IMG/VR virus record: IMGVR_UViG_3300030329_002466
Coordinates: 1 to 55,838 of that record
Origin: a virus
Taxonomy: Duplodnaviria; Caudoviricetes
Direction: 5' to 3' (one strand)
Length of the DNA: 55,838 nt
Shown here: in pieces, positions 13,047 to 55,838 of the stretch
Numbering within the stretch: position 1 is the stretch's first letter
Layout of the letters: each line of letters starts with the position of its first letter
Notes under the pieces: model-generated
The model's input: the letters and a program-made list of their open reading frames with translations, nothing else
The model's database searches: none
What the model was told of the DNA's origin: nothing
Translations under genes and position numbers: made by a program

Positions 13047-16000
13047 ATGGCAGGAATCGAATTAAAAGGCACGGGCGGAATAATAGAAGGAAATCTTGGA
13101 GCAGCAAACGTTAATGTAAATCTTGACAGTTCTTTACAGTTTGATGGTTCTGATGATAAAATAGATGTTGGCGATGTTACTGTATTAGATGGCGATGGCT
13201 CAATCACAGTTGCAGCTTGGGTAAATTTTGATTCAGATAGTAGTGATGACCAACGGTTTGTATGGAAAACTGATGCTTTTGGTTTAGGTTATTTTAGTGG
13301 CCAACTTAGAGGTTACATTTATTACAGTGGAGGGGATTCTAATGCACAAGCTTCACACACAGTTAAAGGAGAAGGTTGGAAGCACGTTGCTATGACTTAC
13401 GATGGAACTACATTAAGGTTATACATAAATGGAAATGAAGCTGCTACAACTTCAATATCGTCAAAAACAATTAGTAACACTTCTAACAATTTAAGATTAG
13501 GAGGCACAGGCACTAGTTCTGAACATTTAAAAGGCAAACTTGCAGATGTGAGACTTTACAGTTCTACACTTACAGATGCAGAAATTAAAACACTTGCTTC
13601 TAAAATAAATATTGCTAATGAATCTGTACAATCTACTAGCACGTTAGTTGGCTGGTGGAAATTAAATAACAACAGTATTACAGATAGTTCTACTAATTCT
13701 AACAATGGCACAGCTACAGGGACAACACAAGTTTACGATGCCTTTAGTGTAAATGTTCAGGACAACAGCACAACGACAGATGGAAACTTTACAGTAACAC
13801 AAGGAAAGGTAGAGGGTTTGGCTTTGTCATGTTTGACATTAGATGGTACTGGAGATAACGTAGGATGTGGAACAAGCAGTAATATTATATCAGATTTTGA
13901 CGGTGGTGATTTTACTGTATCGGCTTGGTTTAATCCCGATAGCACAACTAAAATGTGTATATTTTCGTGTGGTGATGATGACAATGACCATCTCCAAGTG
14001 TTAAGTAAAGATAATGATATATTTTATTCGCACGAAATTGATGGCACATTAGTTAGAGAGCAATTTGCTACAGGTGCTTTAGTCACAACAGATAAATGGC
14101 ATCACATAACAGTTACTAAAACAGGTTCAACTTTTAAATTTTATTTGAATGGAGTACAGTTAACGGGAGCAACATCTCAAAGTTCAACAGCAGGACAGCA
14201 CGGAGGCAATTTTGAAATTGGAGATAATTTTAATGACGATTTCTTTGATGGGACTATTCGAGATGTTAGAGTTTATGATGGCGTTACTTTATCTGAAGAA
14301 CAAGTAGCTTCACTATATTCTAACACTTTTGTTGTAACTCCAACACATATGTGGAAGATGGATGAAGGCACTGGCCAAAACCCAAATGATACTGGAACTG
14401 GTACTACAAGAAATGGAACTGGCACTGGTAACGCAGATTTAATTAGTGGTAACGGCACTCTTGACCTTGACGGAACACTTACGGTAGACGCTACTGGATT
14501 TTTGTCAGCACCAAGAGGTGATTTAGAGTTAGCAGCAACTACATCCTTCGCACAATCATCTGCGTCAGATACTAATGATACGTTTATTCATAATAATGGC
14601 AGAGTAGTTTTAACTAATTCAGGAACAGTAACATATAATTTTAGTAGCGATAACGCAGGTTCAGACAATCCGTTATATGACCTTCAAAATCAAGCAAGTG
14701 GTCAAGTAAGATTTGGAAATGGTTTTATTATAGAAAATAGTCATTCTCGTTCAGGTGGTAATAATTATAATTATTTAACTGGAGGAAGGCAATACAATTA
14801 TGGAACTACAAGCAGTCCCGCAGCTATAACTGCTCAACTTCGAGTTGCATTATCTGGTGGTGATAATATAGCCCATATATATGGTGTGAGTTCACTTCAT
14901 CCTGTTACGATGGATAATTGGGATGACCTTCCTATGACTTATGATGTATCTCTTAAAAATATAAATGTTACAACTGATGTTACAACTAATGTTATTCCTT
15001 CAGGTAGAAAAGTTATATTAGATGGAGATTGTGAGTTCGATGCCTTTACAGTAGAGGCTGGAGGCACTTTAGATTTGAATGGACAGAGGGCTGAAGCATC
15101 AGGTAATTTAAGAATAGAGTCTGGAGGAGCTATGAAATCTACAGGAGGAGGTCTAATTGTAGGGGCTGCTGATGTAAAGATTTTAGGTTCTGCGGAAGGT
15201 ATGCACGATGGTGATGTAAATATGATTGTAAGTGGAGGCACTCACGATTGGAGAAATGGTGCAGCAGATGGAGCAGCACCTTGGTGTAGAACAGTCCTTG
15301 TTAATGGTAATGTAACTCACCAAGACCAATTAGGTCCAAGTTCAGGAAGTTCAATTTATAATCCAGAAAGCGTTATTGTAGGAAACGGAAAATTAACTCA
15401 ATCAGGTGGTCACGCATACTTAAAAGATTTAACAATAGCCACAGGAGGAGATTTGGAAATGACTCACGGTAGTAGCAAGACGATAGACTTGTATGGAGAT
15501 TTTACTACCAGTGGTGGTCTGCTTGGCGCAAGTTGTTTAAAGTTTGATGGAAGTAATGATACAGTTACTATTCCAATAAGTGCTTCTCAAAATGACCACA
15601 TCAAAGGAGCTTTTGCTGACGGCATATTTACAGTAGAAGGTTGGATAAAAATGGAATCTGATTTTGCTGGTGGAAATTGGGTTATGAAAAATCAAGAGTT
15701 TGCAGTTGACATAGCAAGAGATAGTGCAACTCAGTGGGCTTTGGCAGATGGAGGTTCTTGGAATTTTGGTGCTAATCCTTTTACAATGCCTAATTTAGAA
15801 GACGGTAAATGGCATCATTTAGCATTTTGCAGAAGATATACAGGTTCACAGGCTTATTATGATATTTATGTAGATGGTAAATTAGAGACGGTCCATACGA
15901 TGCCAGCAGATAGTGCAACGTGGACAGCAAATGATGATGATTTGTATATAGGCTCGTATAACGGAAGTAGTAGTTTTCTTGGTGAAGGTGCTGACGACAC

Positions 16001-17744
16001 TTTTGTAGAAAATATCCGTATATGGGGAACAACGAGAACGGCAGCTCAGATAAGAGCAGATATGTTTAATTCAACACCAACGTCAAGTGCATCTGATTGC
16101 ATAGCTAATTTTACATTTAATGAGGGAACTGGAACTGCAATAACGGCATCCGACCCTAACAATGCATCAAGCAACGAAACCGCAGGAACTTGGAATGGAA
16201 GTTGGGCAGGAGCAGGAACATTCACTTATAGCACTTCTACGCTTGTCATGGCTAAAGCTGGAACTCAGACTATTTCTTGTTTACATTCTGAGGATATTTA
16301 CAATCTTACAATTAATGATGGCTCTACAACTCAATTATTTACACCAAACCTTACTTCAGGAATATTAGATATATTTGGAAACTTAACAGTTCATGGAATA
16401 TTTAATAATCATTCAAGTTCATCGTCTGGTAGAACTCGAATGAAAGCAGCTAAGAAAATATATGTTCCTCAAGCGTTAGAATTTAATGGTTCTAATCAAT
16501 ATATTAATTTAGGAAACGAACTTGATTATGAAGATAACATTACAGTTAGTGGTTGGATGAGAAGACACAATGATGTCCCTACTGAAATTGTTATGTTCCA
16601 TAATGGAGGTGGAGAAGTAGATGCTTCTTTAATTCAAACAAGAAGTACATCTGGAATAAGAGCAGCTCATAATTATCAAGGGACTTATTACCTTATAGAT
16701 TATACAACTGGTAGTCCAATAAAAGCACATGAATGGAATCATGTAGCTATAGTATTTGATAAAGACGGAAGTAGCAATGCAGATAAATTTAAATTATATA
16801 TTAACGGAACTAGCGTAGGAAGTGTTACTACAGGAAGTGCAGGTCGAGATGCAGATAGTGCAAGAATAGGAACTTATGCTTACAATTTAGAAAAATATTG
16901 GAATGGAGAGTTAGCAGATATTAGGGTATATAATGCATCATTATCAGCATCAGAAATTACAACATTAGCAACTCAAATAGTTCCTAATCAAGCACGAACT
17001 GCAAATCTTGTAGGACATTGGAAATTAGACGAAACTTCAGGAACTACTGCAACAGATAGTGGAACAGGAGGAAACAACGGCACTCATGTTAATACTCCGA
17101 CTCACGTTGGTAATAGGACAACTGCATTAGCAAATATGGCTCAAATGGTTTTTGATTTTAATGGAAATATACATATACCTGAATTAACTACACCTAAATT
17201 AATTTTAGAAACAAATTCAAATTCAGGCATAATTGCAACAGGAGACCTTACAATTAACGCAGAAATAGAAGTAAACGCTACAACATCCTTCACTGGTAAT
17301 GGTAATACAATAGATGTAGATATTTTAGATGTAAATGGTGGAACTTTAGATATGAGAGATTCTGATTTTACTATACAAAGCGGTGGTGCTGTTGCTTGGC
17401 ATGATACAAGCTCTACAATATTATCAGGAAATACAACACTTACAGGATATTCCAAAGCTAATAAAGCAGATACTTATGTTCCATCAGCAGGTAATTATGA
17501 AATAGTTGGAAATGTTAAATGGTTAAAATTAGACGCAGGAGCTACAGATGATTATGACCTTACAGTAATTGGTTCTGTAATAGATTGTGAAATACCTCAA
17601 GATGCGGTAAAAGCTAATATAAGACAATTTCATCACGCCTTAGACACTCAACAGTTATTGGATGCAGATGAAGAAGGAGATGATGATGTGAAATTACCAA
17701 AACCATCACTTGATAATGCACATGAATTACAATTAGGAGGCTAG
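13047..17744 (+). CDS. Giant adhesin/spike protein 3 with 4 LamG domains
   Basis: Four LamG units; N-terminus MAGIELKGTGGIIEG matches MATIEFNGTGGLMEG of the previous gene. Confidence 0.8.
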   Translation: MAGIELKGTGGIIEGNLGAANVNVNLDSSLQFDGSDDKIDVGDVTVLDGDGSITVAAWVNFDSDSSDDQRFVWKTDAFGLGYFSGQLRGYIYYSGGDSNAQASHTVKGEGWKHVAMTYDGTTLRLYINGNEAATTSISSKTISNTSNNLRLGGTGTSSEHLKGKLADVRLYSSTLTDAEIKTLASKINIANESVQSTSTLVGWWKLNNNSITDSSTNSNNGTATGTTQVYDAFSVNVQDNSTTTDGNFTVTQGKVEGLALSCLTLDGTGDNVGCGTSSNIISDFDGGDFTVSAWFNPDSTTKMCIFSCGDDDNDHLQVLSKDNDIFYSHEIDGTLVREQFATGALVTTDKWHHITVTKTGSTFKFYLNGVQLTGATSQSSTAGQHGGNFEIGDNFNDDFFDGTIRDVRVYDGVTLSEEQVASLYSNTFVVTPTHMWKMDEGTGQNPNDTGTGTTRNGTGTGNADLISGNGTLDLDGTLTVDATGFLSAPRGDLELAATTSFAQSSASDTNDTFIHNNGRVVLTNSGTVTYNFSSDNAGSDNPLYDLQNQASGQVRFGNGFIIENSHSRSGGNNYNYLTGGRQYNYGTTSSPAAITAQLRVALSGGDNIAHIYGVSSLHPVTMDNWDDLPMTYDVSLKNINVTTDVTTNVIPSGRKVILDGDCEFDAFTVEAGGTLDLNGQRAEASGNLRIESGGAMKSTGGGLIVGAADVKILGSAEGMHDGDVNMIVSGGTHDWRNGAADGAAPWCRTVLVNGNVTHQDQLGPSSGSSIYNPESVIVGNGKLTQSGGHAYLKDLTIATGGDLEMTHGSSKTIDLYGDFTTSGGLLGASCLKFDGSNDTVTIPISASQNDHIKGAFADGIFTVEGWIKMESDFAGGNWVMKNQEFAVDIARDSATQWALADGGSWNFGANPFTMPNLEDGKWHHLAFCRRYTGSQAYYDIYVDGKLETVHTMPADSATWTANDDDLYIGSYNGSSSFLGEGADDTFVENIRIWGTTRTAAQIRADMFNSTPTSSASDCIANFTFNEGTGTAITASDPNNASSNETAGTWNGSWAGAGTFTYSTSTLVMAKAGTQTISCLHSEDIYNLTINDGSTTQLFTPNLTSGILDIFGNLTVHGIFNNHSSSSSGRTRMKAAKKIYVPQALEFNGSNQYINLGNELDYEDNITVSGWMRRHNDVPTEIVMFHNGGGEVDASLIQTRSTSGIRAAHNYQGTYYLIDYTTGSPIKAHEWNHVAIVFDKDGSSNADKFKLYINGTSVGSVTTGSAGRDADSARIGTYAYNLEKYWNGELADIRVYNASLSASEITTLATQIVPNQARTANLVGHWKLDETSGTTATDSGTGGNNGTHVNTPTHVGNRTTALANMAQMVFDFNGNIHIPELTTPKLILETNSNSGIIATGDLTINAEIEVNATTSFTGNGNTIDVDILDVNGGTLDMRDSDFTIQSGGAVAWHDTSSTILSGNTTLTGYSKANKADTYVPSAGNYEIVGNVKWLKLDAGATDDYDLTVIGSVIDCEIPQDAVKANIRQFHHALDTQQLLDADEEGDDDVKLPKPSLDNAHELQLGG

Positions 17745-24676: not shown

Positions 24677-27571
24677 ATGGCAGGAGACTCATTACTCAGT
24701 ATAAAAGGTAAGGTTAGCTGGCTCGCAGGAGACCACAGTAACGTTATTAATTCTACAAAGAGAATGATGAGTGGAATGAATCAAGCCATAACTGGGGAAA
24801 TGAGAAGTGGCCAACGAGCTCGAGAAGGCGTTATTCAAAGTGGTTTAAATAAAATAGAAAAAGAAGAACAAGCTTCAGCAAAAAGACTTTTAAAGAATAA
24901 ACAAGCTGATGCTCAAAGGTTATCTGAGGTTAGAGTTAACCAAAGAAAACCTCCTAAAGTTACAAGTCGTTCTTCTGACGAAGTTAAAAAGCGTGCAAAT
25001 GATATTAAACAGTTGGTAAAAGCTGGTGAAGAAGCTCATGCTAAATTAAAACAAATACAAGAACGAGCTGGTTCTAAAGTTTCTAAAGCTAAAGCTTGGT
25101 CTGCGACTGAATTTGCTGGCATGGAAGCTGGTGAAAGAGCTGGTACTATAGGTAGAATGAAACAAGCTACCGCAGAATTAACAGAAGAAATAGGCCAATT
25201 AGAAGAAGCGAAGAGTAAATTAGATTATCATAAAGACCGTAGAGAATATATAGCAGTTACTAGAGCAATTGAAGATAAAAATAGAGCGATAGAAGAAAGT
25301 AAAGATGCAACTGGCGAGGCAATAAAGTTAGATAAACAATGGTCTCGTTACGAATTTGAACATAGAGAAGAACTTAAGAAAACTTCTGAAGCTAAAAGAA
25401 AACTATATAGGCTAGATAAAGAAATATACAGAACTACTATCCAAATGGAAAATGATTTAAGAAATGCTTCTAGAGAAGTAGCTGAAGAAATAGGAAGAGT
25501 TCGTCAAGAAGCTGGCGAAGGTTTAAGAAATGCTTTTATGTTTGCTACAGTAGCTATTACAGCATTTTGGTATAAATTACAACCACTTACTGAAACTTTT
25601 AAGGAATTTGAAGCTGAACTTGTTAACGCTCAATCTATTTGGCAAAACAGCCAAGAAGATTTAAATGAATTATCAGACCAAGTCGTTCAATTTGGTCAAA
25701 AATTTGGTATAGAAATGGGTAAGGCCACAGAAGGTCTCTACCAGTATGCATCCGCAGGTGTAGAAGCCGCAGAAGCGATGCAAATGTTAAATCACACTTT
25801 AACTCTATCTATGGCTGTTCAAGGTGACCATAATACTTTGGCTAAACTAACCACCCAGACAATTATGGGTTTCGGTATGGAGTTTAATCAAGCAGCAGAA
25901 GTAACAGATAAGTTTGCTCATGCTATTAACATGTCTTTGATAGAATGGGATGACTTAGCAAGCTCTATTAAGTTTGCTTTACCTTTCTTTACATCTACAG
26001 GGCAAAGTCTAGACCAATTACTGGGAGCTCTATCTGTATTGACCAATAGAGCCCTAGAGGCAGGTATAGCTGGTAGGGGTCTACGTCAAGCCCTAGCGGA
26101 GTTTACACAACACGCTGAAGATAATGCTGCTGCATTTAGAAAAATGGGAGTAGAAATATTAGACACTGAAGGTAATATGCATCAGCTTACAGATATTGCT
26201 GCTCAATTCCAAGAAGCTATGGGTGATGGAGTTAAAGATATGGACATCATGATGGCATTAATGGAAGATTTAAACATTCGTGGTGCTACTGCTTTCGTTC
26301 ACTTGGTTCAGAATGCTGATGAATTCCAAGAGCAGGTTGACGACCTTCAAAATGCATCCGGTGCTGCAGCTAAAATGGCAGAAATTCAGCAGAAATCTTT
26401 AGCTAACCAAATTCAGTTAGTTAAGAACGCGTTAGAAGCTCCGTTTTTAATGTCTGATAAAGTAGGAGAAGCAGCCGGATATACAAATGAATTTGCTTTA
26501 CAATTACATAGTATGACTAAAGCTTTTGAATCTTTAATTGTCGTTGAAGAAAATGGAACAAAAAAACTGACAGAATTTGGTCAGTTTATAAAAGATTTCG
26601 TTATACTTGCTATGCGGGAATTACATGTATTAATAGTAAATGTTAGAGACGCATTATTAAGTTTTGGTAATCAGTCTGAAAGTGCGGCATCTTTACTTCA
26701 TATGTTTACAATTCCTTTAAATGCAGTTGTTAAGTTATTTGGTGCTATAGGTCCCGGACTTATGCAAGTAATAATAATGTATAAACTTTTGAATAAGGTT
26801 TTACCAATAAGTATAGTTAATACAATGAAAATGATAATGGCAGAAAAGAAACAATTATTATCTAAAAGAGCAACACTTATGGCGCAACTTATGGAAATAA
26901 AAGGAATAGGTAAAATAAGAGCGGCTAAGATAGTAGAAGAAATGGGTTATAATAATGTCACAAAGGCTGTGTGGGGTCAAGTTGTAGCTCAAGCAGCTTT
27001 ACAAGTTGGTTTGTTTGCTATAATAGGAGCAGTTAAGAAATGGGGAATGGACAGTCACGAGGCAGCATTTGGTGTAGGAGCTTTAGCTGGTATGTTTACT
27101 TATTTAGCTTATGCCATGACAGCAGCCGTTATAGCTGGTACAAATGCTCTAAACCCGGGTAATTGGGCTACTTTTGGTTCTTTAGGTGTAGCCAGTACAA
27201 TAGCTGGTGTAGCTGCTGTTTCAGGAGCTATGGGTGTGGCTACTCGTTCTATGATGAAAACAGATGATATTATAGGAGAACCACCAAGTTATACCGCTGA
27301 TGAATTTGCTACAGGAGGAAGAGTTATGGCTATGAGGTCTTACGCAACAGGAGGGAGAGCTACTGGAGGTATAGGTGGTACACATTTCCCTGTTATGGTA
27401 GAATCGGGAGAATCTATTATATCTAAAACACAAAACATGGCAAATGGCGGGGTAGGTGGAGTTACAATACAAATCCACGGAGATGTTTATGATGGTGAAA
27501 ACTTCGCTGATAAAGTAGGCCAAGCTTTACCAAACGCACTTAGAAACGCACAAGATAGAGGTACATTTTAA
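24677..27571 (+). CDS. Tape measure protein (TP901-like core)
   Basis: FEAELVNAQSI..GLYQYASAG..DKFA..EAGIAGRGLRQ..MGVEILDTEGNM core; C-terminal FATGG/YATGG motifs. Confidence 0.9.
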   Translation: MAGDSLLSIKGKVSWLAGDHSNVINSTKRMMSGMNQAITGEMRSGQRAREGVIQSGLNKIEKEEQASAKRLLKNKQADAQRLSEVRVNQRKPPKVTSRSSDEVKKRANDIKQLVKAGEEAHAKLKQIQERAGSKVSKAKAWSATEFAGMEAGERAGTIGRMKQATAELTEEIGQLEEAKSKLDYHKDRREYIAVTRAIEDKNRAIEESKDATGEAIKLDKQWSRYEFEHREELKKTSEAKRKLYRLDKEIYRTTIQMENDLRNASREVAEEIGRVRQEAGEGLRNAFMFATVAITAFWYKLQPLTETFKEFEAELVNAQSIWQNSQEDLNELSDQVVQFGQKFGIEMGKATEGLYQYASAGVEAAEAMQMLNHTLTLSMAVQGDHNTLAKLTTQTIMGFGMEFNQAAEVTDKFAHAINMSLIEWDDLASSIKFALPFFTSTGQSLDQLLGALSVLTNRALEAGIAGRGLRQALAEFTQHAEDNAAAFRKMGVEILDTEGNMHQLTDIAAQFQEAMGDGVKDMDIMMALMEDLNIRGATAFVHLVQNADEFQEQVDDLQNASGAAAKMAEIQQKSLANQIQLVKNALEAPFLMSDKVGEAAGYTNEFALQLHSMTKAFESLIVVEENGTKKLTEFGQFIKDFVILAMRELHVLIVNVRDALLSFGNQSESAASLLHMFTIPLNAVVKLFGAIGPGLMQVIIMYKLLNKVLPISIVNTMKMIMAEKKQLLSKRATLMAQLMEIKGIGKIRAAKIVEEMGYNNVTKAVWGQVVAQAALQVGLFAIIGAVKKWGMDSHEAAFGVGALAGMFTYLAYAMTAAVIAGTNALNPGNWATFGSLGVASTIAGVAAVSGAMGVATRSMMKTDDIIGEPPSYTADEFATGGRVMAMRSYATGGRATGGIGGTHFPVMVESGESIISKTQNMANGGVGGVTIQIHGDVYDGENFADKVGQALPNALRNAQDRGTF

Positions 27572-30500
27572 TGGCAATATTTAAGAGAGAATTGAAAATT
27601 ACGACTGAAGAACAGGGCGATGAAATCAAACACGCAGCATTAAGTCCATTGTTAGGAGACTATTTCGATGGTGAAATAAATGTTTTACCTGCAGTAGAAA
27701 ATAATATATATGGTGAAATAGGACCACAAGAGATACCATTAGGTAATAGCGTAGCTAATAGTTTTTATTTATTAGAAACTCCTGTTAAACGTCCTCCAAT
27801 ATTTGGTGAAGCAAAATTAGTTGGAATGGATTTACATGTTAAACATAGTAATATTAATTATAAACAAGAAAATAATTTAGCAGATATAGAAGTTTATAAA
27901 TTTGATAAAGAAATACCTTCTTTAGGTGTATTTCCAAAATTATCATCGGATGGTTCTAAAGTAATAGTTGGTTCAACAGGTCCTAGTACCAGTAAAATGG
28001 TGGAGAAATTTGATGGCCAGACTGGTTGGGGTGGAATTGAAAATTTGAATACCACTTCTAAATCTTCTAGCTCGAGACGTTCGGATGATGATTTATATAT
28101 AACTTTGGAAGATGCTTGGTATATACAAGAGAATGAATCTTCAGGAGTTCCTGATGGTAATCAACATGCAGATGGTTTAAGTAGTAAATCATCATTTAGG
28201 AAACAATATTGCCATTGGGATGATAATATAGGAGCTTATATTATGCCATTAGAGAAGACTGGTTATATAAGAAAAGATATGTTGTCACCGAAAAATGGTA
28301 TGAGATGGAGTAAAGATTTTGCTATTAGTCGAGCGTATTATGATTATGAATTTGCTGTGGCAGAAGATAGAGAAAAGGATTTTAAACGACCTGTTGTAAA
28401 ACATACAGGAGATTGGAGAACTACACTTACTAAAGAAACAGAATTTGCAGACGCTCCAGTTATTACAACCGAACATACTATGCTTAGTGATGTTAGACAC
28501 ACACCTAATGTCTTAGGAACTGTAAAGGAAGACGGTCAAGATGTTAATGTTCTATTTGGAGAATCTACACCTGTATTTTCAACAGAAGGAGAACCACCTT
28601 CTGGACAAGCTTGTGTAATGAGAAATAGATGGACCAGTAGGTTAGATAAAGAGCATAAATTTTCCTTTGGAGAAACAAGTATACCATATCAATCTCAAAT
28701 GATTCAAATGCGTTTACCTTATCCATTACACATAGCAAGACAAATAGATACTGACCAAGCTCTTGATTCAATGTGTGTTTCTATAAAATTCTCTATATTA
28801 GCTTTAACTAAATATCATAGAAGTAATGTCAATCAGGGTTTAAAAGCAGATGGTTCAGCCTCTGCTGTTACCGGATGGGAATTCGGTGCTTGGGAGGATA
28901 AGTGGCCTAATGTAGGCAATTACGGACACGAATGTCAGGAAGGTCATAATCTATTACGTTCTATTATAATGATGACTTCTACAAGTCCTCCTGCTCAAGA
29001 CGAATGTTTCGCTCAATATATTTATCGTTTAAATAAAACTGGCGTATCCCCGGGTAATCCAAATCATATAGCTGACCAATATAATACAACAGCTAATTGT
29101 AAACAGTATTATAATGGTATAGGTTTTGTAAGATGGGGTCAAGGCGCTTCAGACGATACTGAAGAAGGTGAAATTAAAATAATTAATTCTGGTAAAACTC
29201 TAACAGGTAATGATTCTCAATATTGGCAATCAAACTGCGTTACACCAGTTAGTACTAAGGGAAAGAATTTTGGACCTTATACTAATCCACCATTTATTAA
29301 GAAAGCCACAACAGGTAATGGTGGAGAATTCGTTCTAAATACTGCAACAATACCAGCAAATGATGCAACCGTACCTTTAAGTTCACCTACTGATAAAGTT
29401 AGAATTGGTTCATATATACTTAACGATGCTGACGGAGGGGGGAATCAAATAAGATTTGTTCCACACACCGAACAACATGGTAGCGGAAGTCGCTCTTCAA
29501 CAAAAATTTACTTTGATAGAACTGTTTCAATTGTTGGTAACTCAACTTATGACTCTAATGGTGGAAAATTTATGGTTAAGTTTGTAGAAGGTGATATGAA
29601 TGGATATATAGCTAAAATTGCAAGTTCTACCGCAGAGAGCGGCACAGGTAGCGGCGACGACGCAGCATATATAACTCTTGATGATAGTGTTTATCAAACA
29701 ATAAATCAAAGTGATGAATTTATTATAATTAATGGTAAATGGCCTAAAACATCTGTATCAGGTAAAGATTATATGAGAGAGAAGCCATGTTATGTAGAAA
29801 GTATAAATACAGGTTTAGATGGTAATGCTGTTGAATCTTTTGAAATGTCTTCGTCCACAGGAACAGGGCCCGATTCTGCCGAAAGAGTTGGTGGCAGTGA
29901 TAAAATAGTATTTAATCGTGGCTACCCTTATCCAGACGCTATAGAAAGTGTAGTTGGTCCCGGCAATAAAAAACTGATGAAAACTGAAGAATGGTATACA
30001 CTTAAAATGTTCTTCAATGATAGGAGTGAACGCCATGACGGTACATCAGTCACAGAAGGTGGATATATTCGATATGTTTTGTTAGACTCTAATAATAAAG
30101 TAGTTTGGACTAGAAGACAACAACATCAAGGTATAGCACAAACAGAAGAAGCTGTAGGTGGAGACCAAAATACTAATAATGGGTACGCTTTTCCATCTTA
30201 TTTAACTTTATGGGTTAATAATGTAGCAGTAAATGGTGCAACTGGTGAAGGTTCAAATAAAGAATGTGTGGAATCTAAAGGTCCAACACAACAGGGAAAA
30301 TCACATGCTTTATGGAAGACTGATTCTGATATGGACACAGAAGTTACATTAGCAGTAAGTTCTATTTCATGTGAAGGTTATGAACCAGACACTAAAAATG
30401 CATCTTTAATAGGTAGTACAACAAGGGAAGAAATAAAAATATCAGAAAGCACAGATGCACCACTTATTGATACTGTCACTGGACAAAGTGTTGGTACTGG

Positions 30501-33228
30501 AGATGATGTAGCTAAAGGTTGGTTCCCTCCAGCAGGTTCTTTAGCCGTACATAATACAGATTATTCAGATGTTGCTTCTTTGAATTTACCCGAAGCTATA
30601 GGTGAAGGTATGCCAACCTATTTAGACGATGCAACTACTCCTAAAATAGCTCCTACATATTTAAGTTTTGGTTTAACTGATATACTTAGAAATGATATAG
30701 AATCTGGCATTATGAAGGAAGATTTACATTTCTATATGGGTAATTACACTGTTGGAAATGGTACGCAAAATGATATTACTGATGATACAAAAAGAATTCG
30801 AATAAGAGATTATGGCACTGACGGTTACGAAGGATTAAATGGTGTGGATAATAATACTTCCGATGTTATAGCTTTTGTTTCTACTGACACAGACGCCGTA
30901 GCTATGGGACAATGGTTTATAAAAAGAGATACTAATTTAAGCGCTGACCCACATATTAATAATTTGTGTGTATTTGGAGGTGCTGAAACAGGTCAAAAGT
31001 TAAGTGTCGATGGTTTTACGAAAAAGGGTTTCTGGACTTTAAAGAGTGGAGTGCAAACTATGGACACTGTTCTTAATTCTGCTACTTGGACTAAACGTGA
31101 AAATCCAGCATTTTCTACTAAAATAGTTAAAGTAGATGATGCTAGTAACGGTAGAATAACTGTTAGTAATCCACGGGTATTAGAAGCTTGGGAAGATGAA
31201 GAATATATAATATATAGGGCAGGTTTACCTTGGAGTGTAACCGCAGCTAGAGATACAGGAGTAAAAATACAAGCGCAAAATCCAGCTAATTTAAGTGAAA
31301 ATATACAATTAAAAACTGGAACCTTCAATAAACAATTTCTTAATAGGGCTAGCGAAAGGTGGTTACATGATTTATATATATCTCCATATAGATATTGGAT
31401 TATTTTAGAAATATATAATCAGGCTGAGAATGGCGATGCTATATTACCAACTAAATCATATGATTATTGTACCGTACATGGAGGTACAGCTAGAAATAGT
31501 ATACCACCCACTTCTGCTAAACTAGGCGTTACTTACAATGAAACTCTTTACTCTGACACTACTGTAAATAGTAATAGATGGCATGTTACAAAAGGTTCTA
31601 TGGGAGGTTTAATACATGATGCTACTGATTATGGTTATGGCTCAAAAGCTCAAGGAGATTCAGATAAGTTTTCATCAGATTCTGAAACTGGTAGTGGTTA
31701 TATAAATAAATATACTCCAGCTAAAGGTTGGAATACTATAAATTTAAATCCTTATATAGAACAGGAAACTAGATTATCTAGAAAGGGAGAAAAAATAAAT
31801 TTAGCTTTAGTAGCTTCTCAAGAAAGTAAAGGTAGTTCTACAGTTTTAGGTTTAAAATATTACGACACTGGCCTTGGAGAAGATGTAGATGGTAATCTTA
31901 TAGATAAAACTAAAGGTCGTAATGAACCTTATTTTACATTTTATTATGAAGATGAGTTACCAACGATTGATAATTTTAGAGTGCAACCAGATGAAGCTAA
32001 CCCATTTTTACCTAGATTTAAATGGGAAAGTGGTGATGATGATTTGTGGTATGGGTTTATTATGATAGATAATAAAGAAATAAAACATCAATATGAGAAT
32101 GCTGTAGCCCACATACCTCTTAATGAATCGACAGATGAACTTACACATTTAAGCTCTCAAAGGTATGGAACCTCTGGAAAAAATATATCAGGTCCGACAT
32201 TACTTCCTTATAGATTATATAAATATGATGGTAGTACAGATTCTGAATCTAAACCTTCCAGATATGCTTACGCTAAAAATACTAATGCTGGCGCAGATAT
32301 AACTTCAATAGGAACTTATGGGTGGACTGGTCAACAAACTGAAGAAGGTTTAGCGGGACCAGCTTTAAACTGTACTGGCAATTCTACAGACCAAGGAATA
32401 TCAACCAGTAGATTTATAGAATTTTATGCAGCAGGTTCAAAAAGTGGAGGTGGTTTACATCCAACGAGTAGGAGCACTGCTAAAGGTATGGCCCGACAAG
32501 GTGGTTATTATCAACCTAATGATAATTTTAGTATATCTCTTATATTTTCTTGTGATGATATATCGGCACAAAGAACATTATTGTCTAAATATAATGAATA
32601 TGAAATATATATAGGAACGGACGGTTTAGTATATGCTAAACTTTGGCCCGCTTCTGGTACCACAGTTCTTTTAACAAGTTCTTCTATAATACAAACAGGA
32701 GAAACTCCTTATAATGTTATAGTAACATTTGCAGAAGGTTTATCCACAGGTAATGCTAAATTGTATATTAATGGTAAATTAGAAGACCAAACTGGTAAAA
32801 AGACAACGGCAGGTTCAGAAAATAATTGGAAAAATGGACAAAAATTAGCCAGAACATTCGCTACAATAAGCGCTAATGGATTGGATGATAATTCAAATAC
32901 AACAGGAACCTCTTTAACTATAGGTTGTCAGGGAGTGGCGGCTGGCGCTGGTCCGGCAGTTGGAACAAACCCTCATTCTGGTACTTTAGAAGAAATAGTA
33001 CTATATGACACTGTTATTTATCCAGTAGTTCCTACCACAGGAGAAATGTTAGGTTTAACACCATTTAAAGAATTAACTTCTAACAGTGATATCGCCACAG
33101 GACAAACTGTAGGAGCAAAATTATTTGTGAAAGATTATCATAATATTAGAGGAACTTCTGTTTCAGAAGTAGCTTCCTCAAGTTTAATATCAATTAAGAA
33201 GGGAGGTCTGGGTCTTTACACCAGTTAA
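27571..33228 (+). CDS. Large tail tip / fibre protein (1885 aa) with C-terminal LamG domain
   Basis: Follows the tape measure; C-terminal FSISLIF..YNVIVTF..AKLYINGKL..HSGTLEEIVLYD. Confidence 0.65.
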   Translation: MAIFKRELKITTEEQGDEIKHAALSPLLGDYFDGEINVLPAVENNIYGEIGPQEIPLGNSVANSFYLLETPVKRPPIFGEAKLVGMDLHVKHSNINYKQENNLADIEVYKFDKEIPSLGVFPKLSSDGSKVIVGSTGPSTSKMVEKFDGQTGWGGIENLNTTSKSSSSRRSDDDLYITLEDAWYIQENESSGVPDGNQHADGLSSKSSFRKQYCHWDDNIGAYIMPLEKTGYIRKDMLSPKNGMRWSKDFAISRAYYDYEFAVAEDREKDFKRPVVKHTGDWRTTLTKETEFADAPVITTEHTMLSDVRHTPNVLGTVKEDGQDVNVLFGESTPVFSTEGEPPSGQACVMRNRWTSRLDKEHKFSFGETSIPYQSQMIQMRLPYPLHIARQIDTDQALDSMCVSIKFSILALTKYHRSNVNQGLKADGSASAVTGWEFGAWEDKWPNVGNYGHECQEGHNLLRSIIMMTSTSPPAQDECFAQYIYRLNKTGVSPGNPNHIADQYNTTANCKQYYNGIGFVRWGQGASDDTEEGEIKIINSGKTLTGNDSQYWQSNCVTPVSTKGKNFGPYTNPPFIKKATTGNGGEFVLNTATIPANDATVPLSSPTDKVRIGSYILNDADGGGNQIRFVPHTEQHGSGSRSSTKIYFDRTVSIVGNSTYDSNGGKFMVKFVEGDMNGYIAKIASSTAESGTGSGDDAAYITLDDSVYQTINQSDEFIIINGKWPKTSVSGKDYMREKPCYVESINTGLDGNAVESFEMSSSTGTGPDSAERVGGSDKIVFNRGYPYPDAIESVVGPGNKKLMKTEEWYTLKMFFNDRSERHDGTSVTEGGYIRYVLLDSNNKVVWTRRQQHQGIAQTEEAVGGDQNTNNGYAFPSYLTLWVNNVAVNGATGEGSNKECVESKGPTQQGKSHALWKTDSDMDTEVTLAVSSISCEGYEPDTKNASLIGSTTREEIKISESTDAPLIDTVTGQSVGTGDDVAKGWFPPAGSLAVHNTDYSDVASLNLPEAIGEGMPTYLDDATTPKIAPTYLSFGLTDILRNDIESGIMKEDLHFYMGNYTVGNGTQNDITDDTKRIRIRDYGTDGYEGLNGVDNNTSDVIAFVSTDTDAVAMGQWFIKRDTNLSADPHINNLCVFGGAETGQKLSVDGFTKKGFWTLKSGVQTMDTVLNSATWTKRENPAFSTKIVKVDDASNGRITVSNPRVLEAWEDEEYIIYRAGLPWSVTAARDTGVKIQAQNPANLSENIQLKTGTFNKQFLNRASERWLHDLYISPYRYWIILEIYNQAENGDAILPTKSYDYCTVHGGTARNSIPPTSAKLGVTYNETLYSDTTVNSNRWHVTKGSMGGLIHDATDYGYGSKAQGDSDKFSSDSETGSGYINKYTPAKGWNTINLNPYIEQETRLSRKGEKINLALVASQESKGSSTVLGLKYYDTGLGEDVDGNLIDKTKGRNEPYFTFYYEDELPTIDNFRVQPDEANPFLPRFKWESGDDDLWYGFIMIDNKEIKHQYENAVAHIPLNESTDELTHLSSQRYGTSGKNISGPTLLPYRLYKYDGSTDSESKPSRYAYAKNTNAGADITSIGTYGWTGQQTEEGLAGPALNCTGNSTDQGISTSRFIEFYAAGSKSGGGLHPTSRSTAKGMARQGGYYQPNDNFSISLIFSCDDISAQRTLLSKYNEYEIYIGTDGLVYAKLWPASGTTVLLTSSSIIQTGETPYNVIVTFAEGLSTGNAKLYINGKLEDQTGKKTTAGSENNWKNGQKLARTFATISANGLDDNSNTTGTSLTIGCQGVAAGAGPAVGTNPHSGTLEEIVLYDTVIYPVVPTTGEMLGLTPFKELTSNSDIATGQTVGAKLFVKDYHNIRGTSVSEVASSSLISIKKGGLGLYTS

Positions 33229-33230
33229 TT

Positions 33231-36200
33231 ATGGCAATATATACACCAACAGATTTTGTTATATCAGTTTATGAAACAAAAACCTTAGCAGAACAAGGAG
33301 ATGAAACAAATGCATTATATGTATTTAGAAATGTAGGAGATGGAGCTTCGGATTCCTCTAACCCCGCAGTATCTAATGGGTCTCAATTTATAGCAGGCAC
33401 TGCAGATGGAAACACCGTAAATAAACTTATAGATAGTGCAGCAGGTTTTAGTGATAGATTATTAGGTAAAACTGCTAGAAATTTAACAGATAATACAGAA
33501 GCTGTAATCACTAGTGTTGATAGCGCAACTCAATTAGGTTTTGCTTCTGATGTATTCCCTGATGGTAATGAAATATATCATATAGAAAAACCCGGTTTCT
33601 ATTTTACTTTTACTAAATATTATTATCGTATACAAGCTAATGATATAGTTAAAGGATTTATAATTGATTGGGATGATGGTGAAGATAATTCCCCAGAAAA
33701 AGCTAATAGACAAACTATTATGTTAGATGAACCTAATAGTTGGGTGGTTGTAGAGCACACTTATACAAAACATGGTAAGTTTTATCCAATGATTCGTACT
33801 ATAAGTGTTGACGGTTTTTATTCGAAATGGTATGTATCTCACGATGCTAAGAATAGTTTAAGTTCTATTGAAGAACAATATAGTAATCTTTCTGCAGGAC
33901 AAAATGATTGGTCTAATATTTCTTTAGATGTTCAACATTCTGTAAGTACTTCATCTAAACCCCGTATTCCAGAATTTGTTCCAGCTAATGTACCTCCTAT
34001 TGCTAACTTACAAGTTGACCGAAAGAGTGTCTTTTCTGGAATAGATAATTCTAAAATAAGTGGTAATGCTATAGGTTATATTCATAGTCCTCGAAATGTT
34101 TCGAATTTTACAGACGCTTTAGAAGTTATATATAAAACTACTACTGGTAGAATACTTAAAGAAACTATAGATGGTATAAACAATACCCAATTTCCTTCTG
34201 ACACGTCAACAAATGGTTATTTATCAGAGGTATTGAGTGTTAAAATAATAAAAATGAAGGAAGGTACTTCTACAAGTACAGATTTATTAGGACCTGACCA
34301 ACGTATATACATATTATATCATACTTCTTCACCTTCTGTTACTTCAGATGAAGTAATAACTATGGTTTCTTTAGGAAATCCTATTCAAACCCTCGATAGA
34401 CCGGGCTTTTCTGTTTTAGCAGACGGGTCTATGTCACAAACAAAATGTTCTAACGTTAGTATTTCTAAATATATATTTGATACTGGTAAGTTACAAACTT
34501 CTACCGACACTGGCGAATGGTTTGTAAAAAGTGACCCTGATGAAATTTCTGATGTTATAATAGGTAACGGTACTTCAGACTCAGAATTTGCACAAACTAA
34601 TGACAAAAAGAGAATACATTATTCATTTAAACCTAATACATCTGGAGGTCACGTTATTGATAGTGATAATAAAAGATTTTATAATGAAGAACGTCTGATT
34701 AGATTACAAGTTAAAGATTCTTCTGAAGATACCTTTGCGGATACATCTACTCTTTATTACGATGCGGATAGTGTACAAGATACTAGTTTAGATGTTGGTA
34801 ACCAAACTGGTATGGGTAATTTACGAGGTTGGAAATATAAATGGACTTCTGGTACAGCATTGGCAGCAGATATGACTGGTATAATAGTTGCTTATGGTTC
34901 CTCTAGTCTATATAGTCAAATTTATTACAATTTCTGGGGAGTAACACATTTAAAAATTGGTAGTGAATATATGAGATTTTGGGGTCTTAGTAGGAGGAGG
35001 CATTCATCTACTGGCGCTTGGTATTATATATTAGCGGTTAGACGTGGAGTAGGTGGCACAACTGCAGCTTCTCATGCAGCAGGTACACAGATAAATAAAA
35101 TATCTAGAAGATGGAGAACGCCTGATACTACCAAATATTCTTTTATAGAACATTTCCAATATAGTATGTATGCAGACGAAGTTAACAGACCAGAAAATTT
35201 AAGAAGTCGAGGTTTATTATTAAAGGCTCATTCAGCTAGCGCATCAGGAGCTAATACACTTGGAGATGAGGTTTGGGCTCTTAAGAGTTCGGAAAATAAC
35301 CAGAATTATTTTGCAGAAGAAGGTGCAGCTGATGGTAATGACGGATTATTATTTGGTGGTATAAAAAAGTCAGCTGATTATTCAACTATAAATGCCACTC
35401 AATTAACTCATGGTGGTACAAATGGACATAGGAAACGCCCTTCTAATTGGCTGCTATGTTGTAAAACAGATAAATTTAATAAATTATTTTTTAGAATGAC
35501 TAATGAATATGTTACAATAGACACTGAGAAATTTTCTAATGATATATGGCCAGATAAAACTGACGCTAATATAATTTTATATTACACTGCACTAGAAGAC
35601 GAAACAGGTAGTACTTATATATGGAAACCTTTACCTTTTGTTGATGGTACTTCTAGTAATAATCAAGAAGGTCAATCTTTAAGAAAATCTGGTAGTATAA
35701 CCTTTAATATGCCTAACGATTGGGTTAAAGTTAAATCTTCTGATATAACAAGTTGGGCAGGTGATACAGGTAATCCAGTGCCTGAACAAGAAGCTGGTAG
35801 TGTTGGAACAGAAGAAGAGTCTCCTGCTAATTATTGGCAAGATGACATGTATGGTCTTTTAATAGGTATAGCTGTCAATGGAGAATTAACAGATTGGCAA
35901 GATAAGGTAAATTGTAATTATATGTTACCTTATAATAATTCACATTCAAGTGTAATCACTATTAAAGACCCTCATCATAAATCTTTAAATGATATAACAA
36001 TAGCTCAAAGTATTTCATGGAATAGACAGTCCAGATTAATGAATATAACAGATAGGTTAGGAAGAAATGAAATTCGTAAAATAGGAGCCGAAGGAGGTAA
36101 AATAACATTTGGAGGTGTAGAATTGGGAGGAGACAGTTATACAACCACTAAAGCAGCTATTATGCGTTATCAAGAAGAATCTGTACCAGTTTATTTAGAT

Positions 36201-36410
36201 GTAGAAAGGACAAATGGGGATTTTATAAGATTTTATGGCGTTATAGCTAGTTTAAGTGAGGACGTACCTGCCGGTAAAGCTACACCTAAATGGGGAGTTA
36301 GCATGCAAGTAGAATATATAGCTCAATTTACATCTAGTGGTTCTTGGATTAATAATGGATTGATTTCCCTTGGTGGTGAGGTTATAGATGAGCCAAAATA
36401 CTTATTGTAA
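33231..36410 (+). CDS. Tail protein with PKD-like domain (1059 aa)
   Basis: IDWDDG..EHTYTKHGKFYP is a PKD-type motif; also contains a VRRGVGGTTAASH module. Confidence 0.6.
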   Translation: MAIYTPTDFVISVYETKTLAEQGDETNALYVFRNVGDGASDSSNPAVSNGSQFIAGTADGNTVNKLIDSAAGFSDRLLGKTARNLTDNTEAVITSVDSATQLGFASDVFPDGNEIYHIEKPGFYFTFTKYYYRIQANDIVKGFIIDWDDGEDNSPEKANRQTIMLDEPNSWVVVEHTYTKHGKFYPMIRTISVDGFYSKWYVSHDAKNSLSSIEEQYSNLSAGQNDWSNISLDVQHSVSTSSKPRIPEFVPANVPPIANLQVDRKSVFSGIDNSKISGNAIGYIHSPRNVSNFTDALEVIYKTTTGRILKETIDGINNTQFPSDTSTNGYLSEVLSVKIIKMKEGTSTSTDLLGPDQRIYILYHTSSPSVTSDEVITMVSLGNPIQTLDRPGFSVLADGSMSQTKCSNVSISKYIFDTGKLQTSTDTGEWFVKSDPDEISDVIIGNGTSDSEFAQTNDKKRIHYSFKPNTSGGHVIDSDNKRFYNEERLIRLQVKDSSEDTFADTSTLYYDADSVQDTSLDVGNQTGMGNLRGWKYKWTSGTALAADMTGIIVAYGSSSLYSQIYYNFWGVTHLKIGSEYMRFWGLSRRRHSSTGAWYYILAVRRGVGGTTAASHAAGTQINKISRRWRTPDTTKYSFIEHFQYSMYADEVNRPENLRSRGLLLKAHSASASGANTLGDEVWALKSSENNQNYFAEEGAADGNDGLLFGGIKKSADYSTINATQLTHGGTNGHRKRPSNWLLCCKTDKFNKLFFRMTNEYVTIDTEKFSNDIWPDKTDANIILYYTALEDETGSTYIWKPLPFVDGTSSNNQEGQSLRKSGSITFNMPNDWVKVKSSDITSWAGDTGNPVPEQEAGSVGTEEESPANYWQDDMYGLLIGIAVNGELTDWQDKVNCNYMLPYNNSHSSVITIKDPHHKSLNDITIAQSISWNRQSRLMNITDRLGRNEIRKIGAEGGKITFGGVELGGDSYTTTKAAIMRYQEESVPVYLDVERTNGDFIRFYGVIASLSEDVPAGKATPKWGVSMQVEYIAQFTSSGSWINNGLISLGGEVIDEPKYLL

Positions 36411-54255: not shown

Positions 54256-54372
54256 TTAAATCGTCTTTGGGGAACATTGTTGACAATAACCTCCGTATAA
54301 ATCAAATTCGGCTGGCGATATTCTTCTCGCACAACCTAAACATATTTTGTCGTGAAATTTATATGTTCTCAT
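54256..54372 (-). CDS. Zn-finger microprotein (38 aa, CLGC..CQQC)
   Basis: ATGA-coupled; two CxxC pairs. Confidence 0.55.
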   Translation of the reverse strand: MRTYKFHDKICLGCARRISPAEFDLYGGYCQQCSPKTI

Positions 54373-54884
54373 TTTTTCTTACTCCAAAAATTAGTTCCAT
54401 CTTTTCTCAATCTAACTGTGTATGTCCAACCATCATTACCTTTCATCCTTGTTCCAACATCGAAACAACATGCTGATACTAATGGTGACTTTCTAGATAC
54501 AACTTCACCCTTTCTTCTTGATGATGAGTTCTTCCACACTTTTGTTGTATGTCTTTTCCAATAAGGAACGCCCTTACTTTCCTGATAGTCATTCATCCTG
54601 TATTTCAGTATTCTGTCTAAGTTCCTTTTTATAGTGTGGTCTAGATACCACATACCATCGACACTTCTATCCTTTAAATAGGGCCACCTATCAAAGACTT
54701 CTTCATCAAACTCAAATCTATCTAGCCTCTCGCCCATATATCTCTCATCATGCCATTCAGCTAACTCTTTTCTAATATCATAGAGTTGCCTTGTTTCATT
54801 ACACATTTTACATTCCTCTTCATCGGGAGGCATTCCATCTCGCTTACAACTTTTACATTTCAATCTCGCAGTTTCTTCTTCCAT
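54369..54884 (-). CDS. Zn-finger protein with C-terminal RKSP..KGNDG..W domain (likely start Met28 of the track ORF)
   Basis: TAGGAGA SD before ATG 54884; CKSC..CKMC; RKSPLVSA..VGTRMKGNDGWTY..W. Confidence 0.6.
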   Translation of the reverse strand: MEEETARLKCKSCKRDGMPPDEEECKMCNETRQLYDIRKELAEWHDERYMGERLDRFEFDEEVFDRWPYLKDRSVDGMWYLDHTIKRNLDRILKYRMNDYQESKGVPYWKRHTTKVWKNSSSRRKGEVVSRKSPLVSACCFDVGTRMKGNDGWTYTVRLRKDGTNFWSKKK

Positions 54885-54904
54885 TATTTTATCTCCTAAT
54901 AAAT

Positions 54905-55535
54905 CTTTTAGACCATGATGTGATGGTCTTTTATGGTAGTCATCCATTACTCCATATTTCCTCATTTGGTGGGCCGATAGCAGTTAAGAATAAAGGAGGA
55001 TAAAACATGAGTCAAAAACAAAAGTTTTAAACTACTACCGACCTTTCACCGTGAGGGCTGATAAGAGAGAGTGTATATGAATCTTTACCACGTTAGTAAA
55101 TCTTGGGTTCCTACTGTGCTTCTCACGAACTAAAATCGGTCCAGCTTTACGGAAGGGTAATTTACAATCACGTGTTGTCCTCGGCGGTATCTAGTGACCT
55201 TGTTTATCGCTCACGATGAGCTTACTCCTTGTCCTTGATACCCAAAAAGGCATGAATCATGCTTGACTTAAAGGTAGACGCATTATGATTAGCTAATCTC
55301 CTAAAATTGGTTCAGCGTATATGTCCCTGCCACTAAAGGCGTCGGGATTCAGTCCATCCGCATAATGCGTTCAGGTGTTTATATACGGAGTAGCACCACA
55401 TCGCTACTCATTCATCTGCTTTCGACGTTATCAGATTCTCTAATCTCCCCGAGTTTTCCAGAGTCTCTAAACTCACGTTCGGGTTTATCTGATTATCTAT
55501 CGAACTTCTCAGTCTGATTCAACACTCAAAGTCTT
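54905..55535 (-). ncRNA. Candidate large structured non-coding RNA (~600 nt)
   Basis: By far the longest gap without a credible gene in a densely packed genome; at least 10 nested stems; G-U wobbles pair only on the minus strand. Boundaries are approximate. Confidence 0.65.
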
Positions 55536-55536
55536 A

Positions 55537-55713
55537 TCAACCTTTAATGTCACCTTCCTCCTCACCATAGTGAGGGTCAAATAATCCATTTTCGATTACA
55601 TTCTCAAGCCATTTGTCTTGATATCTCAATGGTAATTGCATATGTATTATATCTGCTATAATCCATATACAATCTCTCAAAGCTTCTATTTCTTTATCTT
55701 TCTTTTCTTCCAT
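55537..55713 (-). CDS. Hypothetical protein (58 aa, MEEKKDKEIEALRDCIWII..)
   Basis: GGAGA SD, ATG 55713, TGA ending 55537; not in the ORF track. Confidence 0.55.
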   Translation of the reverse strand: MEEKKDKEIEALRDCIWIIADIIHMQLPLRYQDKWLENVIENGLFDPHYGEEEGDIKG

Positions 55714-55838
55714 TCTTTCTCCGTTAATTTATATTTCGATATAACTGTTAATATTTCATCGGCTGTCCAATTCCTGTCACCATATTCTTTTAGACAGCCT
55801 TTACTGATTCGTTCGAGTCTACTCATCTGCGGGGCTTA

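Follow-up and report, generated by a model that had tools for sequence, protein, structure and literature searches.

A conserved hairpin presenting the antisense image of a translation-initiation region, predicted as the 3'-terminal domain of a large structured RNA in uncultured marine phages

Several described RNA elements act at, or resemble, the region where translation begins. In IS10 RNA-OUT and similar cis-antisense hairpins, the loop complements the Shine-Dalgarno (SD) sequence and the AUG of a gene on the opposite strand. DicF-type prophage small RNAs (sRNAs) are cut from an early operon transcript and block the start region of a host mRNA, and phages also carry translational operators and split ribosome-binding sites (RBSs), as documented for the MS2 replicase operator and for T4 genes 25 and 38. 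Among large RNAs, OLE RNA is described as imitating the 16S anti-SD in its stem P6, to which ribosomal protein bS21 binds (PMC12054373), and PMC12286853 presents ROOL and GOLLD as large, ornate phage-associated RNAs. Here we analyse a minus-strand hairpin in a 55,838-nt stretch of viral DNA (Duplodnaviria; Caudoviricetes; record IMGVR_UViG_3300030329_002466, positions 1 to 55,838), hereafter referred to in its entirety as the window. The hairpin is very probably the 3'-terminal domain of an uncatalogued minus-strand RNA of ~440-600 nt that always lies directly before an open reading frame (ORF) of 192 aa, the whole being placed within an operon of small early genes of uncultured marine phages.

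The core of the hairpin is a 14-bp stem with three G-U pairs, in which GGUCGGUAGUAGUU (55043-55030, minus strand) pairs with AACUGCUAUCGGCC (54985-54972); across a 3-nt AAA bulge it is extended by a basal helix of GGUG (55050-55047) with CACC (54971-54968). The enclosed 44 nt (55029-54986) contain CAU and CCUCC, and their complement on the plus strand reads AAAGGAGG-N7-ATG AGT CAA AAA CAA AAG TTT TAA. All of these elements, namely the sequence, the stem with its G-U pairs, the GGUG/CACC extension and the enclosed segment with both motifs, correspond base for base to the preliminary description from which this analysis started. Its account of a 44-nt loop holds as an enclosed length; the fold itself is predicted to be subdivided, with a 6-bp A/U upper stem (UAAAAC/GUUUUA) placed between an apical loop and a 3' bulge (Table 1).

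Folding analysis revealed a marked asymmetry between the strands. The 101 nt of the minus strand reach a minimum free energy (MFE) of -32.6 kcal/mol, against a mean of -17.5 (standard deviation 3.1) for shuffled sequences (z -4.91; 0/200 shuffles as good), whereas the plus strand of the same stretch reaches -20.5 kcal/mol (z -0.96) and is equalled by 40 of 200 shuffles. Across 13 sequences, eight of them distinct, the 24 pairs of the hairpin are 98.9% paired, compared with 27-51% in slid controls. Support for the hairpin is provided by stability, conservation and strand asymmetry, without covariation of its own. The pattern GGAGG-N4-10-ATG occurs nine times in the window, and just one of these is the first ATG of a long ORF; the hairpin case exceeds chance because the pattern sits in the unpaired, nearly invariant part of a conserved hairpin. 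The original observation is confirmed as real and as more than a chance resemblance.

Table 1. Features of the hairpin locus, in window coordinates
Feature	Position	Strand	Description
Hairpin	54968..55050	-	basal 4-bp helix, 14-bp stem, upper 6-bp A/U stem, apical loop, 3' bulge
Apical loop, 17 nt	55007..55023	-	CAU at its end (55009-55007), complementary to the plus-strand ATG
3' bulge UCCUCCUUUAUUCUU, 15 nt	54986..55000	-	carries anti-SD-like CCUCC (54999-54995); core invariant in the window and 13 loci
RNA body	55056..55542	-	predicted closing helix; long-range helices inside, interrupted by inserted hairpins that vary
Conserved ORF immediately following the hairpin (3')	54369..54965	-	198 aa from M1; 192 aa from M7 (54947)
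Window-specific spacer, hairpin to M7	54948..54967	-	16-nt insertion adding GAGG, GGAG and a two-codon ORF (AUG GAG UAA)
Mini-ORF MSQKQKF	55007..55030	+	preceded by AAAGGAGG (54992-54999)

Metagenome contigs were scanned with an alignment of homologs of the 192-aa ORF, yielding 17 loci, of which four begin inside the ORF and 13 hold upstream sequence. In all 13, this upstream sequence matches the ORF-free region of the window at 66-86% identity. The hairpin is complete in the 12 loci that have about 135 nt or more upstream of the ORF; L011, truncated at its contig end, retains the last 56 nt (3'). With a covariance model built on the 3' domain, exactly one copy was recovered in the window and one in each of the 13 loci, and none in nine other loci or in four more distant related phage contigs. 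Loci L002-L006, found via a 492-aa protein and the resolvase, yielded no copy of the RNA by BLAST or covariance model, and in L005 and L006 other genes occupy the syntenic place. The 701-nt region had no match among GenBank phages, and exact-pattern scans for the hairpin had none in the viral collection or the species genomes. The RNA occurs in marine viromes of several studies, so far in a single lineage of marine phage contigs.

The preliminary description had looked to homologs for loss of the anti-SD or anti-AUG; no such loss is seen, since CCUCC, CAU and the 7-nt spacing between them are kept in the window and in 13/13 homologous loci. It had also imagined the loop as a guide-like, possibly variable part of the large RNA, with the remaining positions diverging around CCUCC and CAU, and in this respect the homologs point the other way: the 22-nt core CAUGU(U/A)UUA(U/A)CCUCCUUUAUUC is the most conserved piece, with a mean pairwise identity of 97.2% (minimum 90.9%). 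Its two substitutions both fall in the 7-nt spacer, and none in CCUCC or CAU. The corresponding means are 95.1% for the hairpin stems and 88.5% for the 5' part of the apical loop, which is the most variable stretch of the hairpin, compared with 83-85% at codon positions 1 and 2 and 67.8% at codon position 3 of the neighbouring ORF.

Partition-function folds of the longest available sequences predict that the two motifs are exposed. CCUCC is predicted unpaired at 0.83-1.00 and UUUAUUC at 0.74-0.99 in 13/13 sequences, and CAU at 0.87-0.97 in 12 of the 13 (0.37 in L020); the 7-nt spacer between CAU and CCUCC is mostly paired, in the upper stem. The hairpin consequently displays what characterizes the seed of a trans-acting anti-initiation-region sRNA, that is, a conserved, predicted single-stranded tract complementary to an SD and an AUG. 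Inversion of the loop DNA between the stem arms was also considered and dropped: all sequences show one orientation, and no strand-changing joint was reported.

The folded RNA appears to be read from the minus strand, in agreement with the earlier proposal. Each of the three stem positions that vary alternates between G-U and A-U, changes that would be A-C mismatches on the plus strand, and the consensus fold of the 3' domain reaches -25.0 kcal/mol as given against -10.2 for the reverse complement; together, these switches and the consensus fold point to the minus-strand RNA as the structure under selection. Many predicted pairs are G-U. No RNA run was listed among the sequencing runs that carry the element. 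A 1427-nt contig from a sequencing run guessed to be RNA represents a relative spanning the upstream ORF, the RNA and the downstream ORF, although contigs show neither strand nor ends.

The hairpin constitutes the 3' domain of a structured RNA located at about 55542-54968, whose length ranges from ~440 to 600 nt because several internal hairpins are variable insertions. In shuffle comparisons, a 586-nt region including the hairpin gave z -3.45 for the minus strand versus -1.99 for the plus strand. Upstream of the hairpin, 48 predicted pairs are 98.2% paired in 11 aligned sequences. Compensatory double changes are seen in 11 of these pairs; controls with the partners shifted by 1-3 columns show 1-3, and not one of 500 shuffles attains the observed score. 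This covariation above controls identifies the parent RNA as a structured RNA under pairing selection and bears out the suggestion that the hairpin belongs to a large RNA. A closing helix joins the 5' end (55542-55532), a strand that overlaps the stop codon of the upstream ORF, with the stretch just before the hairpin (55066-55056); its 20 pairs are 100% paired and include one G-C/A-U swap (3 versus 5 of 8 sequences).

Two further observations concern the interior of the RNA. The closing helix and two internal helices compete for one UCUUAUCAGCC strand, whose mutually exclusive partners, the 5'-terminal GGYUGA(A)UAAGA and the internal GCUGA...AGGAGA, are both fully paired in all sequences; in the present model, this duality could reflect a conformational switch or an unresolved part of the model. 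A terminator-like site occurs in mid-RNA (55250-55262, minus strand), where GCAUGAUUCAUGC is followed by CUUUUUGG; it is probably not a terminator, the U run being invariant but the stem only 3 bp in most homologs.

Comparison with catalogued RNAs was uniformly negative. Rfam 15 gave no match in the window at gathering level; within 54800-55838, three matches (E 0.46-8.1) were all far below threshold, and nine weak matches in eight homologous loci included none common across the RNA. Accordingly, none of the Rfam families covered, including group I/II introns, tmRNA, DicF, OLE, ROOL, GOLLD and riboswitches, accounts for it, and ARAGORN detected no tRNA or tmRNA. A full-text literature search found no description of this RNA; a catalogue of over ten thousand candidate viral RNAs (PMC10690425) could include it in its supplements. 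The parent RNA resembles ROOL and GOLLD (PMC12286853) in its size of ~440-600 nt, its many covarying helices and its phage origin. It differs from them in lacking an Rfam match, in its tight linkage to one ORF and in its restriction, so far, to contigs of a single marine phage lineage. Few non-coding RNAs are both large and well folded, and the study of each new class has proved rewarding; the present one covaries clearly and has no Rfam match.

The ORF directly 3' of the hairpin probably starts at M7, because 14/14 aligned homologs begin there with MD(D/K/E)Y. Its 198-aa form has 33 relatives among ~5.8 billion proteins, all metagenomic, and no further homologs were found in the viral collection or in the species genomes. 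The GGUG/CACC helix ends 5-7 nt before the AUG, with no SD between, in 12 of 13 full sequences, and opening the start region of the ORF costs 10.6-14.6 kcal/mol in homologs versus a median of 6.0 for 46 window genes. The window copy is the exception, with an opening cost of 7.2 kcal/mol at M7 and an upstream M1 AUG buried at 19.8. In this copy only, the stop of the inserted two-codon ORF overlaps the M7 AUG; UGAGG (54964-54960) pairs there with CCUCA (55056-55052), where the sequence flanking the hairpin on its 5' side has changed.

The RNA and the ORF appear, from their distribution, to behave as one cassette that is gained, lost and moved as a unit. A contig from one sequencing run connects 54373 with 55570 and lacks both, and neither the RNA nor the 198-aa ORF is present in two phage contigs of more distant relationship. 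In L012 (1436-1556) the 58-aa ORF follows the RNA and the ORF, so that the pair is found on either side of this 58-aa ORF in different relatives; in the remaining loci extending to that point, the matched sequence passes from the 46-aa ORF straight into the RNA. Such a compact two-part cassette would be suited to reporter systems. The ORF product contains a CxxC...CxxC pair, followed in the description by a helical central region and a basic C-terminal part that is very conserved. No PHROG family matched it at E up to 0.001, and Pfam gave none near threshold; its structural model has a moderate mean predicted local distance difference test score (pLDDT) of 66, with no PDB fold match at E 0.001 or better and no Atlas lead.

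The position of the hairpin also invites comparison with phage operators and split RBSs. As in those systems, a hairpin at or just before a start codon could gate initiation, and an SD-like AAGGUGA lies at its 5' foot; unlike them, where the hairpins are small, this one measures 83 nt and has an invariant 44-nt top. A split RBS using AAGGUGA is improbable: the motif would lie 11 nt plus the helix end from the AUG, a spacing that is too long. Both sides are invariant.

The plus strand opposite the loop had been put forward as a possible minigene, MSQKQKF; as a coding gene it is not supported. In 13 sequences, the ORF that begins at the conserved ATG measures 7 aa (four sequences), 15 aa (one), 17 aa (three), 24 aa (one), 32 aa (one) or 34 aa (three). 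These ORFs occupy three frames, the apical loop carrying small indels that change the reading frame, and the peptides are unrelated between frames; neither ORF length nor peptide is conserved, which also speaks against a leader peptide. The comparison with IS10 RNA-OUT is instructive here. In both cases, a stable hairpin presents the antisense of a complete initiation region encoded opposite it, in the same place. RNA-OUT, however, is a free 70-nt RNA that targets a real conserved gene (transposase), whereas this hairpin ends a ~500-nt structured RNA and has no opposite-strand gene to regulate, because the ORF is 7-34 aa in three frames. A cis-antisense regulator, whether of the RNA-OUT type or of the type I toxin-antitoxin type, was rejected on the same grounds.

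The complement of the loop nevertheless seems to behave as a genuine strong start site. Exact 22-mer matches elsewhere occur in unrelated organisms and all lie directly 5' of a long stop-free run on that strand (2/2 in the viral collection, both being the same gene on two contigs, and 3/3 in the species genomes). Judged on these matches, the tract may be one of two things: a consensus start region copied in antisense, or a start region whose use does not lie in the peptide it encodes. On the minus strand, the CATG palindrome means that an AUG can also be read in the apical loop (55001-55009). An upstream ORF starting from it (MFYPPLF) is unconserved, becoming MF-stop where UAUCC is UAACC, and has no SD before the AUG; this AUG is probably meaningless.

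Our preferred reading, which leads the alternatives but is held tentatively, is that the hairpin is a base-pairing element directed against the initiation region of an mRNA outside the window, perhaps with translation of the ORF coupled to it. From the structure, strand, conservation, predicted exposure and ORF linkage described above, we infer the pairing with an mRNA, the nature of that mRNA and the coupling to the ORF. The hairpin would act as a base-pairing module with two invariant single-stranded patches, CCUCCUUUAUUC in the 3' bulge and, 7 nt away, CAU at the apical loop's edge, which together would form the exact antisense of a strong SD-N7-AUG initiation region. These patches may act as seeds in pairing with one conserved mRNA at its initiation region, the mRNA being either a host transcript or one encoded in the missing 19% of the phage genome, and pairing would block translation of this target, as known anti-initiation-region RNAs do. 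Target pairing might also loosen the hairpin and thereby couple translation of the ORF to target capture; such coupling is conceivable because the hairpin foot lies 5-7 nt before an SD-less ORF start in 12/13 sequences. If the tract does pair with a host start region, it would point to a host gene that these phages must silence and would help to name the host.

DicF-type sRNAs offer the nearest precedent for such a role. Like them, the element is flanked by small early phage genes, an ORF following it directly, and offers a single-stranded pyrimidine tract complementary to an SD region; unlike them, it has no Rfam match, is embedded in a far larger RNA and has no target found for it. The antisense interpretation of the preliminary description is on balance partly supported: the minus-strand element, the large RNA and the exposed antisense image of an initiation region stand, whereas the loop is invariant and no target was found.

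Several results weigh against the pairing reading, foremost among them those of the target search. An exact target in the window had already been reported as lacking, and the 18-mer complement indeed matches only itself there at up to 3 mismatches. In a duplex scan of both window strands, the best non-self partner reached -26.8 kcal/mol, in purine-rich coding sequence, against -67.2 for the self-complement. The 46 start regions of the window gave a mean of -12.7 and a best value of -21.3 kcal/mol, and shuffled loops on the same regions a mean of -11.8 and a best of -20.8 (standard deviation 2.3); the capsid start, once suggested as a possible partner, ranks fourth of the 46 at -18.1 kcal/mol, which is chance level. 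No conserved target site was found in ten neighbouring loci, and the species genomes, scanned for the exact 22-mer only, returned three unrelated chance matches and no host candidate. No target above chance thus emerges from the window and the neighbouring loci, and the loop complement is a generic strong RBS, so that complementarity to some start site is cheap. In the hairpin stem, 0/24 pairs show a compensatory double change, and the three changes observed are one-sided G-U/A-U changes. Near-invariance extends over the whole 3' domain, beyond the anti-SD and CAU, and conservation does not single out the loop. The strand is assigned from folds and the G-U pattern. Finally, about half of the genes of this phage lack an SD, so that an SD-less start says little by itself, and the link to the ORF may be trivial, phage genes being tightly packed.

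Other partners of the loop were examined and rejected. Pairing of the loop with E. coli 16S (-26.4 versus -25.6 kcal/mol for shuffled loops, standard deviation 2.2) and with E. coli 23S (-26.6 versus -25.2, standard deviation 2.1) was no better than that of shuffled loops. Pairing of the tract with the AGGAGA strand of the RNA itself is weak (-3.3 to -8.5 kcal/mol) and is lost in L008 (-3.3 kcal/mol); that strand pairs better with its UCUCU partner, at -11.2 to -12.3 kcal/mol.

Unlikely, although second to mRNA pairing in our ranking, is a hairpin that works purely in cis as a translational operator, gating the SD-less start of the ORF while its loop binds a protein (the ORF product, or one from the host, for instance ribosomal protein S1) and its likeness to an anti-RBS is incidental. 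The short distance from foot to AUG, the costly opening of the start region and the joint travel of RNA and ORF are consistent with such a gate. In the MFE fold of 8/12 loci, moreover, a short, weak extra helix of CC(C)UNA with UNAUGG can cover the AUG, with G-U, A-U and U-A at one position, and the 16-nt insertion of the window provides its own SD and an accessible AUG, as if the gate had been escaped. This helix is nonetheless irregular and replaced by other pairings in L007, L008, L012 and L018, SD-less starts are common in this phage, and the ORF product shows no recognisable RNA-binding family; a covarying RNA of ~500 nt goes far beyond the needs of an operator, which would also leave the perfect anti-SD-N7-anti-AUG of the loop unexplained. 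We consider less probable again a structural or processing hairpin, that is, a two-turn duplex that ends or stabilises the RNA or an RNase III-type site between the RNA and the ORF mRNA, with the loop sequence kept for tertiary or oligomer contacts and its anti-RBS look coincidental. The dimensions agree (4+14+6 bp with an asymmetric 3' bulge, or about two helical turns), as do the position just outside the closing helix, the near-invariance of the entire 3' domain and the eight chance occurrences of GGAGG-N4-10-ATG elsewhere in the window. However, nine occurrences per 111,676 positions would place the pattern in only ~0.4% of 44-nt loops, the match here is longer (AAAGGAGG), and no conserved tertiary-contact partner was found. 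Nor is the hairpin an intrinsic terminator: it is followed by CCACCAAAU, with no U tract, and the terminator scan does not list it.

The remaining readings are improbable to different degrees. An anti-SD mimic or decoy, in which the exposed CCUCCUU copies the 16S tail and binds a tail-recognising factor such as bS21 or draws off an attacker, is favoured by the identity of this tract with part of the E. coli 16S 3' end and by its invariance and predicted exposure. The closest parallel is OLE, a large conserved bacterial-world RNA of ~600 nt whose CCUCCU, according to PMC12054373, is identical to the 16S 3' tail and binds bS21. In that same description the OLE tract is paired to an SD-like strand, whereas here it is predicted unpaired, with CAU at start-codon spacing and no internal SD-like partner kept, and the element was not assigned to the P6 type of mimic; such a mimic, moreover, has no need of the conserved CAU at 7-nt spacing, Rfam shows no match to OLE, and the 16S comparison was made with the E. 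coli tail, which may not be that of the host. Were the tract a copy of the 16S tail, it would follow OLE RNA as the second natural anti-SD mimic and would be the first from a virus. A bolder version, which we likewise regard as improbable, is that the terminal hairpin imitates the two mRNA-reading elements of the initiating 30S at their natural spacing, with CCUCCUU standing for the anti-SD tail of 16S and CAU for the anticodon of the initiator; it would then capture SD-led host messages generally, or titrate away a host factor or nuclease recognising the 16S tail. If true, this would amount to an RNA-only takeover or protection of translation, which phage genes, with mostly shorter SDs, would escape. 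On a par with the anti-SD mimic stands a plus-strand initiation region, whereby AAAGGAGG-N7-ATG on an antisense transcript would start the translation of a short variable peptide and a minigene or ribosome-loading site would maintain the SD and ATG. The invariance of SD, spacing and ATG, with both core substitutions in the spacer, and the 5/5 exact 22-mer matches before stop-free runs speak for it; the absence of a conserved peptide, the structure and G-U pattern that mark the minus strand as the selected RNA, and a neighbourhood in which all genes are on the minus strand and no plus-strand gene follows speak against it. Least probable is a sigma-70-type promoter for the 192-aa ORF within the loop (TTGACT, 17 nt, TATTCT, minus strand, 55015-54987). 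The scan gives 9/12 consensus matches, but 65 sites in the window score as well, and the surrounding 1.5-kb region holds two sites versus 5.3 in shuffles. The -35 element reads ATGACT in L014, L015, L016 and L018 and is absent in L020 (changed or lost in 5/13), while CCUCC, which would be spacer, is invariant, the reverse of what a promoter would lead one to expect.

The window is a linear viral contig with an estimated completeness of 81%. Genes up to 37.4 kb are encoded on the plus strand and include a portal, a major head protein and virion proteins of very large size; between 37.4 kb and the right end, every gene is on the minus strand, including ribonucleotide reductase, DNA polymerase and a Holliday-junction resolvase. 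The segment 54966-55536, which holds the hairpin, is the sole long ORF-free stretch of this minus-strand block and is flanked by a 58-aa ORF (55713-55537) and the 198-aa ORF (54965-54369).

A profile search with the ORF product among 1.84 billion representatives returned 81 matches, most of them sharing only the last 40-60 residues, in proteins of 52-608 aa; a Pfam scan of 27 of the 81 gave sub-threshold hints only, such as a 2-cysteine adaptor domain. The basic C-terminal part (54369-54500; SPLVSACCF...GNDGW...LRKDGT..W) recurs in N-terminal, C-terminal or internal positions of otherwise different proteins. In the structural block, six ORFs of 964-1885 aa lie on the plus strand at 5200-17744 and 24677-36410, and two of these six match the virion structural protein family phrog_8510, several times each.

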